NCBI GenBank assembly: GCA_951406725.2
Contig: OX597831.1
Span: 40,052,001 to 40,116,000, forward strand
Direction: 5' to 3'
DNA length: 64,000 bases
Source: Octopus vulgaris
Taxonomy: Eukaryota
A program made the translations under genes and the position numbers. Of the stretch, positions 18,687-36,273 are shown one piece after another; within the stretch, counting starts at the first letter, position 1, and each line of letters begins with the position of its first letter. The notes below the pieces were generated by a model. The model saw only the letters and a list, made by a program, of their open reading frames with translations. It was not told the origin of the DNA and did no database searches.

Positions 18687-19023
18687 CAAGTACATGTGTG
18701 TGTTTATATTTTACATATATTTCTCTGTTAAAGTCAATCATCACACACACACGCACCCTATACCCATGAAAATTTATAGGGGCTATTTCTTGACTCCTTT
18801 CACCCAGTTTTCATCTCTTGCATTTCTTTCTGTCATTTTGCTTCCCTTTTTATCCTCCGATTCCCATCGAATACTCACTTTTTCCCATCTTTCTTTACTT
18901 TCACTATTGTGTGTGTGTGTGTGTGCACGTGTGTATCTGTCTGTTTATGTCTCCTTGGCAAGTGTCACTGTCGTAGGAGCCATGTCACTCATTTCCAGTA
19001 TAAATTGTGAAAGCACATCTGCT

Positions 19024-19410
19024 CATCATCATCATCGTTTAACATCTGCTTTCCATGCTGGCATGGGTTGGATAGTTTGACTGCGGACTGGTGAGCCAGA
19101 GGCTGCACCAGGCTCCAGTCTGATCTGGCAAAGTTTCTACAGCTGGATGCCCTTCCTAACGCCAACTACTCAGAGAGTGTAGTGGGTGCTTTTACATGAC
19201 ACTGGCATGAGGGACAGTCAGGCAGTTCTGACAACGACCACTCTCAAAAGGTGTTTTTTATGTGCCACCAACACATGTGCTGGTAGGGTGACTCTGGCAA
19301 CAATCACGGTCAAATGGTGCCTTTCACGTGCCGCTGGCACGGGAGCCAATCTGTGGCCCTTGCAGTGATCACACTTGGGTGTACTTTTAACGTTCCAGTG
19401 GCACAAGTGC
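19024..19410 (-). mobile_element. RTE 3' UTR element (family C)
   Basis: Reverse complement of family C, with (CAT)n tail. Confidence 0.75.
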
Positions 19411-19778
19411 CAGTCATGGGCAAATGTTACCCCTACTTGAAAACAGGTGAGGGTTGGCAACAGAAAGGCATCCAGCCATGTACGTTGCCTCGATGAACTT
19501 TGTCCAACCCAGGAAGCATGGAAAATTGGACGTTTAAAGGAATGATATATGTGTGCATGCATCATTCAGACGCATTTGTATTTTACTCTCTGTCAGTTTC
19601 TTTTTTCTCCTCCTCTGCCTTTCCTGTAGAAGAGCATAGGCTCAAAACATTAAAGACTTCATTCAATTTCCCTGACCGTCAAATGATATATCTTCTTTGT
19701 TGTTGTCTTACATTGTCTTTGTGTTTTTTGTTTTTTGTTTTTTTTTTTTTCAGGTTATATATATGCTTTTACACACAC

Positions 19779-19838
<60 letters not shown>

Positions 19839-20091
19839 TGTATGTCTGTGTAATTCTTTATACAAAAATGTTATTAGCAGTGGCTTTGAAGTTTCAACCA
19901 GTTAAGTGATCATTGGATGCAGTTTGATAATGGCTTAACTGGCTGTAACTTTGAAGTCATTGTCAAGAATATTTTTCTTCAAGAATAATAAATTTGTACT
20001 CTACAAAAGTATAGAATAACCATCGGAATAATGTGAAATTGTTTTTATTATAACTGAACATAAAAAACAAAAAGCAGCACCATATTATAGG

Positions 20092-20830
20092 TACAGGCGT
20101 GACTGTGTGGTAAGAAGCTTGCTTCCCAACCACATGGTTCCAGGTTCAGTCCCACTGCGTGGCACCTTGGGCAAGTGTCTTCTACTATAGCCTCGGGCTG
20201 ACCAAAGCCTTGTGAGTGGATTTTGTAGACAGAAACTGCAAGAAGCCTGTCGTGTGTGTATGTGTGTGTGTATATATATATATATACATATATCGGGACC
20301 TCCTTCGCTCACGACATTGACCAATGGGATTGCACCTAGAAAGTTACCCTCCTAATCACAAGTCTGGACAAGGTGGTTTATGGAAGACCAGCAGTTGCCC
20401 ATGCATACCGGCCTCCCCTCTCCACGCCACCAGTGTTATCCAAGGGAAGGGCCGCAGCCGATACAGCTTGGCACCCGTGACATCGCAACTCATTTCTACA
20501 GCTGAGTTAACTGGAGCAATGTGAAATAATGTGTCTTGCTCAAGAACACAGCACGCAGCCCGGTCCGGGATTTGAGCTCACAACCTCACGAACGTAAGCT
20601 TAACGCTCTAACCACTGAGCCATGCGCCTTCACTATATATATATATATATTTGCGTGTGTGTCCCCGTCATCACTTGACAATCAATGTTGGTGTGTTTAT
20701 GTCCCTGTTTATCAGTGTCTTTTGCCAAACTGCTAAGTACTCGGCTTACAAAGAATAAGTTCTAAGGTCGATTCCTTCTGCCTACACTCTTTAAGGCTGC
20801 AGTCAAATGACTGAAACAACTAAAACAATA
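20092..20830 (+). mobile_element. SINE family A copy interrupted in its internal microsatellite by a family D2 SINE
   Basis: Head at 20092-20250, degenerate tail at about 20650-20830. Confidence 0.7.
20295..20633 (-). mobile_element. tRNA/CORE-type SINE, family D2, nested
   Basis: Minus strand GTGAAGGCGCATGGCTCAGTGGTTAGAGCG...GTTCTTGAGCAAGACAC. Confidence 0.8.
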
Positions 20831-20945
20831 AAAGAAAAAATATATTTTTCCTGAGCACCAAACTAAAACTCCTGCTTGTTCTTTCACCTGTCTCTGTCTT
20901 TTGTTTTCTATATATGTGAACCATATCTATCTATCTATCTATCTA

Positions 20946-21006
<61 letters not shown>

Positions 21007-21007
<1 letters not shown>

Positions 21008-21437
21008 GCATTTCTAAATCTCATAGAGAGACTTATGCAGTAGTGATACGATAAAGTAGTTGTATGCTGTCAACTTAATGTGACAGTCCCATGAAGGGAA
21101 TAATAGTACTGCTATTTAGCCCTAGGAAGCAGCTATGCTTCCTGTCAGCCTTGACACATTTCCTGTGTCCTTATGTTTGCAAGGGCGAGATAAGCACCTC
21201 CACCCAGCTAAGCCTGCACTCAGAGACTAGTTTCTGAGTCTTTGCTTGTCTTCAGTCTGGAGTACCATGGCTTGCTAGTTAGAGATGCCTATCTAGCCCT
21301 TGTAAACATATAATAATTCTAGTGAAATACATTCACTGATTTCAAAAATAGAAATAATACATTTCTAAATCTCTCAGAGAGATTTATGCAGTAGTGATAC
21401 GATTAAGTAGTTGCATGCTGTCAACTTAATGTGACAG
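21007..21437 (-). mobile_element. Hammerhead-containing ~350 bp unit with ~80 bp terminal direct repeat (retrozyme or non-autonomous Penelope-like)
   Basis: 21007-21087 is repeated at 21357-21437. Minus strand hammerhead motif at 21217-21264. Flanked by (TA)n. Confidence 0.65.
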
Positions 21438-21446
21438 CATACAGCT

Positions 21447-21495
<49 letters not shown>

Positions 21496-21540
21496 GTATG
21501 TATCTGAGTTTGAATGGTTGTGTATAGAACAATATCTTAA

Positions 21541-21767
21541 TCTGATTTTCACATTTTATTATTTACAGTTTTACGATAAATTAGTACTTACATGCGTTAT
21601 GCAATCATCAGGTTTATGTCGTGACTGCCATGTTCCACAATTGACAACTGTGTGAATTGTGGAACACCACTGTCGCTATATAAACCTAATGATTGCTTAT
21701 TGCATAAAAGTACTACTTTATTGTAAAATTGTAAAAATTGAAAAATATAAAAACATGAAAATCTGAC
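21541..21767. mobile_element. ~225 bp imperfect palindrome (foldback MITE-like)
   Basis: Nested paired arms TGTTCCACAATT/AATTGTGGAACA, GCAATCATCAGGTTTAT/ATAAACCTAATGATTGC, TAGTACTT/AAGTACTA. Confidence 0.7.
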
Positions 21768-21951
21768 TGTTGGAATTTCTTTGATTAATATGTGTGTGTG
21801 TGTGTGTTTGTACGTAATCCTGTGTGTATGTCTTAAGTGTTACTTGAAAAATATAAAAACATGAAAATCTGACTGTTGGAATTTCTTTGATTAATATGTG
21901 TGTGTGTGTGTGTTTGTACGTAATCCTGTGTGTATGTCTTAAGTGTTACTT
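21740..21951. repeat. Near-perfect tandem duplication of ~106 bp
   Basis: GAAAAATATAAAAACATG...AAGTGTTACTT occurs twice, head-to-tail. Confidence 0.9.
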
Positions 21952-22883
21952 TTTGTGCTGAGCTTAGCTATGGTCTGTGTCATTTGTTTACTGGTATTTC
22001 CCTCTAGAGAAATGGGCAGTGAAGAATGAATGACTGCCTTACTTGAGAACCAGGTCAGGTTTAGCAGCAGGAAAGGCATCCAACTGTAAAAACAATGCTT
22101 CAGTTATATGTATTCATCTAACCCAAGCTAGCGTTGGGGAATTGGATGTGACAAGAAGAAAAAAGCACAAAAGAAAAAAATCGAAAGCGAATGACCGAAC
22201 AATGAACACTTTAAAATTGGCAATTTTTGTATCAAAGAACCAGTTTCAGGAAGGCTGGCATCAATAGGGTTAAAGTGGTTATACTTTTTAGCACAAAGTC
22301 AATTATTTTTCAATAGAGGGGAAAGAGACGCCATTGAGGTTATAGGAATTTCTGCTCTTGATATTTCCTGCTATGCAAAAATAGAAAAATAAAACGAAAT
22401 AATAGCAATAATAATAATAATGATGATAATAATAATAATAATAGCAATAATAATAATGATAATGTGCAAAGAAATGCAAAGAAATTAAAAATTCTTTTAA
22501 AAAATCTTTGTGGATAAACATGAAACATGCAGAAGTGGAGGAGGAAATGGTGGTTTCTTTGTAGTTTTTGAGACATGTAGTAGTAGTAGTCTTATTAAGA
22601 ATTCTTCCAATATACATGTATTAAGTGGGAGTTCTTGTGTGTGTGTGTGTGTGTGTATGTGAAGCATAATTTAGTATATACGCTCTGGTAAAAAATATAT
22701 ATATATATATGAAAGTGTGTTATTTGTGTGACTGTATAAGCTATGTGCAACATGGATACATTTGTGTATATAATATATGGCATGTTTCTATACATACATA
22801 CATATATGTATGCAAGTTTCGATATATGCTCCGTTTCTCTTTTTTTCTAATTCTCATGCATAATGAGTATGCATGTATATATA

Positions 22884-22935
<52 letters not shown>

Positions 22936-23766
22936 AATTTGTGTTTATACATCTGTCTGTGTATCTCTCTCTATATATATATATGTGTGTGTGTATATAA
23001 ATATATATATGTGCATGCATGCATGTATACATACATACATACACTCATACATGCATGTTTGTATACATGCGTAATTCTCACATAGGAATTAGAGAAGGAG
23101 AAATATTCAAAGACTGGAATTTTAAGACATTTTTGCATTTTATTTATTCATTATGTATATATAGAAACATACATATATTTACACATACACACACACACAC
23201 ACATATATAAATATATACACATACATACATCTATTTCCACGCATCCATACAGTTTTCAGTAGATTGCGTCTCCAATCGAGTTTGCAGTTCCTCGAGGTCT
23301 CTACTATAAATCTTAATGTGTTTGGCGAAGAGCTCTTGCTTTCATTTCTTCACACATGACATGCAAACGAATCCATAGAAATCTAACGCTATCAGGCTCA
23401 AGTCGCACATGCAACTGGACACAAGCGGGCACAGTCCAACCGCATTAGTATCAGGTGAACAGAGCCTCTATACAGTCCACTAACCACATACAAATTATCT
23501 CATCGCCTGCCACATGCCGGAACCCCTTCCCCTTGATCGAAGTGACCCCGTGTTTGTGTATTTTGCATCGTCTTTCAGATCTGTTGAAATGGGTACTTTA
23601 GTTCTGTGGTTAGGCAAACCGTTTCTAAACTGTTGGGAATCAATGATATTAATCAGAATAGAATAGCTTTTATTCTTTTTTTTTTGTCATATTCATGAGT
23701 ACTGCATATGTGTGTGTATGGAAATATGTGAGTTTATTTATCTCTTTCTCTCTCTCTCTCTCTCTC

Positions 23767-33645: not shown

Positions 33646-35083
33646 AATTAAAAAAATATGATATCAGGCATGTTGATCTCAAAAGGATTAAATGTTTATC
33701 CTCTTGGAGAATGTAGAGTTTATTGTGTATACCACACTATTGTTTGTTCTTACAGAAGATACATGTTTAAGTGGTGATAAATATTAGCCCTCGGTGTTGT
33801 GTATGTTTAATAAGACGTTTGCTCCTTATGTATGTATATATGTGTGGGTATGTTTGTGTCTCCTTGTCTTGACATTGTATGATACAGTAATACTTCACTT
33901 TATGAGGACCCGTTTTATGAGACCCCCGGGTTTACGAATTTAATTCTATTATAAATATAAAAAGGTTGAGCAGCCACTTTGTGTGTGTGTCTGTGGCCAC
34001 ATCGCAACATGTGGCAACACTGGTTCAGATTCGTCTACACAGTGATGGAGTAAAATGACAGCATAAAATTTTCATTGTTGCTATGGGAAATCATTACTCC
34101 GCTTTACGAGTTTTCACATTACAAGCAGTCTCTGGGAACAAATTAACTTGTATATCGAGGCATAAGTTTAGTTGTAAAACGAAGGTCTCTGTCATACAAG
34201 GAATGTCATTCATTTCCAGTATTCTGTTCTGTGAAGACATGTCTGGCCATAGGGGTTCAATACCTTGTTTGGAAACAGATGAGAGTTGGCAACAAGAAGG
34301 GCATATCTGGCTATGAAAAAACCGGCCTGAATAAAATCCAGCTAACCCATGCCAGCATGGTAAAATGGACATGAAAATGATGCTGATGCTGATGATCCTA
34401 CACACACACACACTCACACACACACACACACAGAGGTACAGAAATAATGTGTTTTTAAGTTGGGATAAATTCATGGCCATGGACATCTGATCAGTTCTTT
34501 TCCTTTCTTTCTTATTTCCCTATAAAAGAAATCATCATCATTGTAAGCATGGCATTTCTCGAATAGGTCATAGGTCGTTAGTCATTACCCCCTCCTTTAA
34601 TTCTCGAAATGGATTTGGATGTTCTTTGTTAGGTACAGCAAAGGACAAAAACCAGAACTTGTTTCCTCGTTTGTCTCTTGCCTGCGTTAAGCCCTCACAG
34701 TATCCCTGGATGTAATTATTGAAAACTAATCTGATTGATTGAAAAATTAATTATTTAATATCCTCTGACATAGTTGCCATTACTTTGGAATAAATCTTTT
34801 TATCTTTTACTTATTTCATCACTGGACTGTGGCCATGCTGGGGCATTGCCCCCAACAGCTTGTAGTCGAGCAAATCAATTCCTTCTATAGTTAGGGTTTT
34901 TTTTCTTTTTAAAGTCTGATACTCATTCTCTTAGTCTCTTTTGCTGATCTGTTAAGTTATTTGAATGTAAACAAACCAACACTGGTTGCCAACTGATGGC
35001 GGTGGAGCAGTGACAGACACACAGACACATAGTTGACATAGAGACATAGCAAATTTAACAATTTCCTTGTAGATTGAAAAATT

Positions 35084-35143
35084 GATGAACAGCCTTAAAT
35101 GATTTTCGAACCTTATTGGGGTCTCATCAGAGGTGTTTACATC
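35084..35143 (-). ncRNA. Type I hammerhead ribozyme motif with intact core
   Basis: Minus strand GATGTAAACACCT-CTGATGA-GACCCCAATAAGGTTC-GAAA-ATCAT-TTA-AGGCTGTTCATC. Confidence 0.7.
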
Positions 35144-36273
35144 ACATACACTCACATATATATGAATATAAATACATTTGTATATACATATATACGTCCT
35201 CACATTTTCTGTCTACCAAGTTATTTACTCACAAGGCTCTGATCAGTCTGGGGCTATCATAAAAGACTACTGCCCAGATGCCATGCAGTGGGACTGAACC
35301 CAAAACCTCATTGTTGTAAAACGGGCTACTTAACCACATAGACATGCCCGGATTCATTTTCTTTAGTTCTTTTCTTTTTTTTTTTTTTTTTGTCTCATTT
35401 CTTTTGTAATTACTATACAGAGATTTAGAGTTGATTCTTCATAGCATCTTTATTTTGATTTTTTTTTTCTTTTTGTTTTCCTAGTTTGGTGTGCATTCAC
35501 TCCATTCAGAGTTGTGCTGTAGACTTTTAAACTAGCAATAAGCTCCCATCAGACTGAAGTCATCCATGTCCTGAATTTCAATCCCAATTATCTTTACTCT
35601 CATTAGCTACATTCCTTTGAAGTTAATATGATTCATTTATTTCTCGTCTTTTTGTAAATATCTTAATGTTTCATATGCATCTGTGGTATTTGCGGAAAGC
35701 TAACGTGTCCATCGAATTCAAATGAGATATCGACCAGAGGGAAAAGTAAAACAGTATTTTAAAAAAAAGAAAATGATGGCGTTGTCAATTATTTTTAACT
35801 GACTACTTTTATTAACATATAAATATGTCTCTGTGCGTGTCTGTATCATTTTTGGTGTCATTGTTTTGTAACGTCCAGTTTTCCTTGCTTGCATGAGTTA
35901 GAAGGATTGATTCTATTGAGACAGATGTTGTGTGGCTGGACGCCTGCCCTTGCTGTCGCCAACCCTCACTTGTTTTGAAACAAGGTGATATTTCCTCATG
36001 ACCGGACGCATGCTTCACGAAGATTGGAAACAAATGACACCCCTCGTATGACAGTGACACTCATTTACAACTATCAAGCAACATCAAGGTGTGAAGGCAC
36101 ACACAAGATCCTTATAGCCACAAACATAACAAAAGTCTACGTACTTACTGGGAAATTAACCACCCCACAGCAAGCCAGGGTACTATATTGGCAAGCTAAT
36201 TTTGCTTGAAATTAAAGCTCATCAGTAGTAGTATTCCATCGCTGATAGTTGAGCCAAATCCTACCTGTCAGTA

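Follow-up and report, generated by a model that had tools for sequence, protein, structure and literature searches.

The window, by which we mean the entire 64,000-nucleotide stretch of Octopus vulgaris DNA that was analysed, carries a decayed member of a dispersed repeat family whose 351-nt unit has one type I hammerhead, lacks an ORF, and is very probably mobilised by a Penelope-like element (PLE). Our analyses establish the family, its fold, two fixed 3' ends, inverted 5'-truncated partners, and AT microsatellites as insertion targets. By the criteria that can be tested, the family would be classed as a non-LTR retrozyme that also has the insertion marks of a non-autonomous PLE, and both cleavage and a circular RNA are predicted for it. 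The complete chain of events, in which the window holds a decayed copy of a 351-nt non-LTR retrozyme that was inserted in trans by a PLE RT/GIY-YIG protein from a circular unit-length RNA, is the account we favor with moderate confidence.

Copying by PLE enzymes, possibly from a small RNA circle, is the proposed origin of comparable repeats in mussels and salamanders. The retrozyme model, wherein hammerhead circles are re-inserted by PLE enzymes, so far rests on co-occurrence and on pseudo-LTR similarity. The octopus family adds evidence from the insertion ends, because here an ORF-less hammerhead unit has the two-start-site signature of PLEs.

The insertion in the window

Comparison of the window with itself reveals a direct repeat (20997-21086 and 21348-21437) with a spacing of 351 bp and an identity of 91%, and the window's ORF list includes no ORF of at least 130 aa over the unit. 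Both results agree with the first-pass annotation of this DNA, which had noted a direct repeat defining a unit of about 350 bp that has no coding capacity. Approximately 82 nt of the direct repeat belong to the element, and its first ~10 nt blend into (TA)n. We number the unit along the hammerhead (minus) strand, such that m1 is position 21437 and m351 is position 21087.

The whole insertion occupies 21005-21453 (minus strand) and is composed of 1.24 units plus a 22-nt inverted piece, located between (TA)n tracts. The full unit (m1-m351, 21087-21437, minus strand) differs by 6.8% from the family majority. It is followed by an overshoot into a second unit (21005-21086, minus strand), which runs from m1 to about m84-90 and ends at a fixed 3' site that we call S2. 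Thus, the repeat previously called terminal is real, but its nature is that of an overshoot. The inverted piece (21432-21453, plus strand) is a 5'-truncated copy of m15-36 that ends at the other fixed 3' site, S1, and it is joined to the main piece via the 6-nt arm of a hairpin formed by m1-20, where the two overlap at the junction. The earlier span of 21007-21437 in (TA)n was therefore correct with regard to (TA)n on both sides, but fell short of the actual extent, which includes this piece. With S2 on its left and S1 on its right, the window copy has the ends of a typical product of the family, and the copy itself is ordinary.

The left flank is (TCTA)n(TA)n (20923-21005) and the right flank is (TA)n(TGTA)n (21451-21503); a target-site duplication is unreadable in such repeats. 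To the right of the element lie an inverted repeat with 93-nt arms (78%) at 21554-21743 and a perfect 106-bp tandem duplication at 21738-21951.

Copy number and age of the family

The unit is multi-copy. A DNA search of the genome (2.80 Gb, 227 contigs) returned 2,846 dispersed candidates on many contigs, of which the 40 that were scored have 85-94% identity over most of the unit. Among 42 units of the window's subfamily, divergence from the majority has a median of 6.0% (3.1-10.3), and CpG positions stand at 17%. An exact match to a 36-nt majority motif is found at only 32 places in the genome. Given these three values, we judge the 351-nt family to be old. Further subfamilies are 15-23% away. 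DNA sequencing runs with five organism labels contain 32-45% of the sampled words, and the family is present in the one run that was mapped. At one locus (L098:3186-4163), the segment m307-m66 is repeated, giving a longer repeating unit.

The hammerhead and its extended fold

The hammerhead core of the window copy (21225..21255, minus strand) reads CUGAAGA (21255-21249), a 14-nt stem II region (21248-21235), GAAA (21234-21231), the palindromic stem III CUAG (21230-21227), and UC, such that C17 of the GUC triplet falls at 21225 and is the predicted cut. The core, triplet, and palindromic stem III are as first annotated. An 8-bp stem I with one bulge had also been described and can indeed be drawn in this copy, but that register was created by decay and is not the family pairing. 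The stem I of the family is UCCAGA/UCUGGA, whose 6 bp lead into an internal loop (3x1) and then into a long extension. Both the CAANNA sequence of loop II and the UAC of the internal loop may resemble the tertiary contacts of schistosome hammerheads. Furthermore, the motif is not the minimal type I hammerhead that had been proposed, since its layout, under the definitions of PMC4209133, is that of a canonical metazoan type I hammerhead with a helix I of 6 bp, a helix II of 3-4 bp, and a short palindromic helix III.

Stem II of the window copy is decayed, as initially noticed, due to a G to A change at 21247, which lowers its predicted pairing from 0.85 to at most 0.35. Because the copy carries a single hammerhead with a broken stem II, it is likely inactive, and it represents a monomer derivative rather than a two-hammerhead 'active' dimer (Li 2026 definition). 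The Rfam hammerhead scan recommended earlier covered 19000-23500 and 21010-21445 and yielded no hammerhead, which for the window copy holds even at E<=10. All matches returned fell below the gathering score and were mostly microsatellite look-alikes.

At the level of the family, the hammerhead is genuine and appears to be under selection. The core pattern with stem II left free has 528 matches in the genome versus 0 for a reversed control, and when loop III is also left free there are 687 matches versus 2. We aligned 40 copies that were picked from 121 references to cover the subfamilies and the full rod described below. Stem II is intact in 37 of these, with each of its three pairs kept in 37-38 copies, and the pairing lost from the window copy is thus restored in the family. 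Stem I is paired in 92% of cells and the C15.2-G16.2 pair is kept in 39 of the 40 copies. Position 10.1-11.1 is unpaired in 29 of the 40; it is C.A in the window's subfamily (family A) and U.U, A-U or G.U in others. Given C.A in place of the conserved G-C, the activity of family A may be low. G-U pairs are tolerated on the hammerhead strand.

Loop III, counted by eye among the first 100 of the 687 matches, is CTAG in 83 and CATG in 5, the latter being a double change that preserves the palindrome. The remaining matches include 10 single changes, one other double change, and one member of another family. About 26 of the 38 CATG matches (also by eye) belong to the 351-nt family. In the monomer, stem III has approximately zero predicted pairing, and the self-duplex of the palindrome is predicted at -6.2 kcal/mol. 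This arrangement, with a short stem III and a palindrome, is the one for which dimer cleavage is described (PMC4209133).

Stem I continues into a long rod of about 42 pairs (~40 bp), which in the window covers 21172..21310 (minus strand) with arms at 21269-21310 and 21172-21214 that are 81% complementary. Across the 40 aligned copies, 89.4% of the rod cells are paired. Columns are changed on both sides at 9 pairs, notably 20/147, 24/143 and 32/133. A total of 51 rod cells are changed on both sides compared with 24.6 in shuffles, and 0 of 500 shuffles are as high, where the control ignores relatedness and the compensations are a few subfamily events. When the monomer is folded as a circle, the MFE z-score relative to 50 shuffles is -9.6 for the family majority and -9.9 for the window copy, and the corresponding values for the opposite strand are -8.2 and -7.6. 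The GC content of the unit is 0.40-0.42. Two additional substructures are located near the 3' sites: the hairpin m1-20 (21418..21437 and again 21067-21086, minus strand), which is 12-16 nt upstream of S1, and a palindromic segment m52-72 (21366..21386, minus strand; self-match 95%), which is upstream of S2.

Two fixed 3' ends

We mapped insertion ends at 91 loci, leaving out duplicates (L057, L059, L150 and L153) and nine loci of other hammerhead families. Most of the 91 were chosen for an intact hammerhead, which creates a bias against 5' ends at the cut. Among pieces of at least 40 nt, 104 of 146 3' ends fall within two 20-nt zones that are about 55 nt apart, with 53 in the S1 zone (m21-40) and 51 in the S2 zone (m81-100). 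The 5' ends are spread, with at most 15 per 10-nt bin. The first-pass annotation had suggested a check for circular permutation of the copies. Random circular permutation is rejected by this concentration of 3' ends, and the copies instead have two fixed 3' sites and inverted 5'-truncated partners.

Besides the fold-back of the window copy, the 91 loci contain 47 head-to-head pairs. Both outer ends are at a known site in 27 of these pairs, and the combination is S1+S2 in 26, S1+S1 in one, and S2+S2 in none; in each of the remaining 20 pairs, one or both ends lie at other positions. At loci that were not picked by the window query, all 13 such pairs are S1+S2. In addition, (TA)4 adjoins 39 of 115 fixed ends, compared with 5.2% of random flank positions.

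PLE insertions are known to have a tail at one end only, to be accompanied by an inverted, truncated partner, and to target microsatellites (PMC8557442, PMC3846280), and the tail has been shown in vitro to be the stretch between two internal RT start sites (PMC11167929). The insertion anatomy of the octopus family is this PLE signature, and from it we infer the mobilising PLE protein. The tail of the octopus unit is ~55 nt (48 nt in the sister family described below) versus 30-40 nt in the PLEs described in these sources. A circular template would require precisely this kind of internal initiation and, with starts at S1 and S2, would therefore not leave randomly permuted copies.

The sister family

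A second, younger family with a 355-nt unit (L136:2109-2478, L171-L190) is 54% identical to the 351-nt unit. It has 3,658 candidates in the genome, with copies that are up to 98% identical to the query and up to 872 nt long, several of which carry two hammerheads. The rod and the hairpins are preserved in the sister family, as are the two 3' sites, which occupy homologous positions 48 nt apart (20 loci). Its hammerhead has a U3-A8 core, versus C3-G8 in the 351-nt family, and compensatory stem II variants. The 10.1-11.1 pair is G-C in all 11 sister copies shown. Loop III in these 11 copies is CCGG in 5, CTAG in 3, CCGCGG in 2 and CTGG in 1, and thus includes three different palindromes. As an independent realisation of one design, this sister family provides the strongest evidence that the fold, the dimer hammerhead, and the start sites are functional.

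The comparison also bears on the possibility that these copies are DNA-level repeats, such as minisatellites or MITE-like fold-backs, in which the hammerhead motif is incidental. The missing Rfam match in the window copy is compatible with that explanation, as is the organisation of two loci (L022 and L104) as tandem arrays. Minisatellites or fold-backs would nonetheless account poorly for a polarity in which 3' ends are fixed and 5' ends vary, for compensatory changes in three helices, for the C3-G8 to U3-A8 core swap, or for the tolerance of G-U pairs on one strand. We consider this explanation largely refuted and very improbable.

Coding capacity and the search for a partner PLE

The anatomy of the insertions is that of PLEs, and therefore the copies might derive, as 5'-truncated pieces, from the pseudo-LTR of an ordinary autonomous PLE that is absent from our sample. 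The genome carries several PLE families and our searches score only the best candidates, both of which leave some room for this proposal. It is contradicted by the contiguity of the copies, and we regard it as improbable. In 45 of the 91 loci, the longest piece is more than a unit long and runs contiguously through S2 into another pass of the unit, and therefore the repeating unit has no ORF and there is no place for one upstream. Reading through S2 is also found in 15 of 61 loci outside the query-biased set. Also against the proposal, the masked flanks of 60 loci share nothing except common SINE-type repeats. PLE fragments near units at nine loci (L032, L036, L039, L099, L102, L152, L158, L201 and L206) were considered as partners and rejected, because they are from different families or have host DNA between them and the unit.

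No GIY-YIG/RT ORF is contiguous with the unit in any of the 91 loci. This absence argues against an ordinary Penelope pseudo-LTR, which had been named at the outset as the alternative. The original proposal of a retrozyme-like family is in turn upheld by this absence, by the multi-copy unit, and by the restored stem II of the majority.

PLE proteins are encoded in the genome, and at least 16 (counted by eye) are found in 781-aa frames among the 148 GIY-YIG matches listed. These frames carry RT and GIY-YIG domains. To seek a partner, we conducted protein searches with the GIY-YIG family and with Hydra-like and Poseidon-like proteins, the latter two of which brought up additional PLE families, and then scanned the 86 best-scoring PLE loci with profiles of the unit and its sister. 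The names Neptune-like, Hydra-like and Poseidon-like are clade assignments that we presume from motifs. The profiles match 6 of the 86 loci, and the five that were inspected (not L117) are separate insertions. Among these 86 top-scoring loci, which represent several families, there is no PLE with a terminus similar to the unit. Each PLE family inspected has its own terminus, and three of them have hammerhead-like motifs.

Two of the PLE families have features of their own. A young autonomous PLE (L091-L096, for example L094:744-5990) has copies that are 95-99% identical, a separate 479-aa open frame upstream of the 781-aa RT/GIY-YIG frame, a pseudo-LTR of ~505-545 bp, a tail of 40 nt, and what may be a U3-A8 hammerhead. 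PLEs do not usually carry two ORFs. The other is an abundant, degraded Hydra-like family (L102, L111-L140, L206) with 14,537 candidates and an Asn-rich insert, which has a hammerhead with a long stem II and two 3' ends about 97 nt apart.

The template for insertion

The whole hammerhead is spanned by 103 of 145 pieces and only one of the 145 starts within 5 nt of the cut, in a sample that is biased to intact hammerheads. In the matches listed for 3,305 DNA contigs, the most frequent loose ends are S1, S2, and subfamily differences, and not the cut. Therefore, the template is not a cleaved linear monomer, but is either re-ligated or uncleaved.

In the account we favor, a source copy with two hammerheads would be transcribed, and the two hammerheads, paired through the palindromes of their stem III, would release a 351-nt monomer that a host ligase would then close. 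A PLE protein would nick both strands of AT-rich DNA, and reverse transcription would begin at internal positions of the RNA, namely S1 (about m32-36) for one strand and S2 (about m84-92) for the other. The cDNAs would vary in length, continuing past the cut site for as much as ~1.8 units, before being joined head to head by microhomology. For the window copy, the S2 cDNA would correspond to the 1.24 units and the S1 cDNA to the 22-nt piece.

Alternatively, PLE machinery could act on the same ORF-less unit with an uncleaved linear tandem transcript as template, in which case the hammerhead would be kept for end processing or turnover and there would be no circle. For PLEs themselves, uncleaved RNA is the dominant substrate and hammerhead mutants are still inserted, which means that cleavage is dispensable (PMC11167929), and in Xenopus 8 of 9 dimers did not cleave (bioRxiv 10.64898/2026.07.22.740005). 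An uncleaved template would also fit insertion lengths below about 2.5 units. We consider it possible but unlikely. Unit length is constant at 340-357 nt across families that are up to 46% apart, and covariation is seen in both the palindrome and stem II, which would be expected if it is important that neighbouring units cleave as a pair. Furthermore, circles of 350-390 nt have been demonstrated for mussel retrozymes (PMC7229834).

Comparisons between passes are informative for both templates. The passes of a single insertion resemble each other more closely than do copies from separate loci (92.4 vs 90.1%, and 96.3 vs 90.8% in the sister family). No difference between the last and earlier passes is recurrent, with at most 3 of 18-29 comparisons, and 2 of 9-11 in the sister family, sharing one. 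Such homogeneous passes are as expected of a circle or of a homogeneous tandem, including a young tandem source, whereas the lack of position-specific differences weighs against the uncleaved linear transcript. The first-pass annotation had attributed the longer-than-unit insertion to a circular template. The window copy does fit a circle, but fits an uncleaved tandem transcript equally, and so does not demonstrate one. Two or more hammerheads are present in only four of the 91 loci (L013, L022, L034 and L047), which weighs against the favored account. The longest locus, L022, was rejected as a 2.6-turn reverse transcript, given that its passes share 13 rare variants versus 3 in all other tandem passes together, and it looks like a later local duplication.

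RNA reads

We also examined about 6% of each of three standard RNA-seq runs, whose organism may differ from the window's species and whose library type shows circles unreliably. The unit is matched by 893, 852 and 627 reads per 11.5-12.9 million. Reads are equal on both orientations, 81-82% of them continue into unlike flank, and the depth profile is that of truncated genomic copies, with low depth at 21277-21320. There is no pile-up of reads at the cut in the three runs, which an uncleaved linear template would explain. The reads show passive transcription in the RNA-seq organism, and are compatible with the presence or absence of a circle.

In each run, 111-144 reads join the S2 end (21349) to one specific flank and correspond to one well-expressed transcript that contains a copy end. 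This flank was considered as the continuation of a PLE and rejected, as its motif is absent from the window's genome assembly. The CATG palindrome (21228-21229) is found in half or more of the RNA reads but is rare in that assembly (38 vs 528 pattern matches), which suggests a different species or a lineage-specific burst.

Relationship to known retrozymes and PLEs

The closest likeness is to the non-LTR retrozymes of Mytilus galloprovincialis (350-390 bp), which likewise have one type I hammerhead per unit of ~350 nt, no ORF, a GC content of 40-42%, a strongly self-paired monomer, thousands of genomic copies, and autonomous PLEs alongside (PMC7229834). Unlike the mussel arrays, the octopus copies are mostly dispersed and shorter than two units. 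The fixed double 3' ends and inverted partners of the octopus family were not found among the features described for the mussel elements in the portions of PMC7229834 available to us, and the words 'cephalopod' and 'octopus' are absent from its main text. Cleavage and circles have been demonstrated in mussel (PMC7229834), whereas for the octopus family they are predictions from sequence.

In contrast to endonuclease-positive PLEs (PMC8557442, PMC3846280, PMC11167929), the octopus unit has no RT/GIY-YIG ORF, and its sequence does not resemble the terminus of any PLE family sampled from its genome. Thus, the unit is not an autonomous PLE, and the window copy is not an active dimer. A recent preprint (Li, Clavereau, Pollet; bioRxiv 10.64898/2026.07.22.740005) similarly indicates that animal retrozymes use PLE machinery and that monomer derivatives are dispersed along chromosomes. 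The preprint draws on co-occurrence and on a phylogeny of pseudo-LTRs in Xenopus, and the taxa it names in the parts consulted include no mollusc, whereas the octopus evidence comes from the anatomy of insertion ends. The octopus unit also matches no sampled pseudo-LTR, unlike the Xenopus evidence in the preprint.

The hammerhead resembles the canonical metazoan type I hammerheads of PMC4209133 in its 6-bp helix I with an internal loop, its 6-nt loop II, its 1-2-bp helix III capped by a palindrome, its predicted dimer cleavage, and the U3-A8 variant of the sister family. It differs from those hammerheads at 10.1-11.1, where the family has C.A (or U.U, A-U, G.U) versus a highly conserved G-C, and in the extension of stem I to a ~40-bp rod. 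In PMC6962438, 235 Rfam hammerhead-1 matches are counted for the giant squid genome, in a passage that gives the count without analysis. Our literature searches, which covered main texts, brought up neither a retrozyme from a cephalopod nor a description of PLE start sites in retrozymes. Repeat databases such as Repbase and Dfam may already list the family.

More tentatively, and at somewhat less than even chances, these families could represent a long-lived lineage of ORF-less, viroid-like RNA circles of ~350 nt that parasitise PLEs. Families up to 46% apart keep the rod, the dimer hammerhead, and two internal RT start sites while matching no sampled PLE terminus, and a PLE RT with no requirement for a 3' end would copy their circles through more than one turn. 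If so, PLE recognition would need no more than the conserved hairpins that precede S1 and S2, and the rule of one site per strand would reflect an asymmetric RT dimer. The presence of younger sister copies and intact 781-aa PLE ORFs in one genome makes the step from circle to insertion testable in vitro.

Other hammerhead repeats

The window carries a second, unrelated type I hammerhead piece (35050-35145, minus strand) with a CUGAUGA core, a 5-bp stem II and a CAAUAA loop, which is located inside another repeat. This repeat is an old family with 1,012 candidates, 83-91% identity and a common 3' end, and 8 of its loci contained no PLE ORF. A different hammerhead repeat family (L146, L160, L162, L164-L166, L168, L170) carries the CATG palindrome and is not matched by the profile of the unit. 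Lastly, the locus L104:1066-2467 is a four-unit tandem array with a period of ~352 bp that belongs to a further diverged sister family and carries a degenerate hammerhead.
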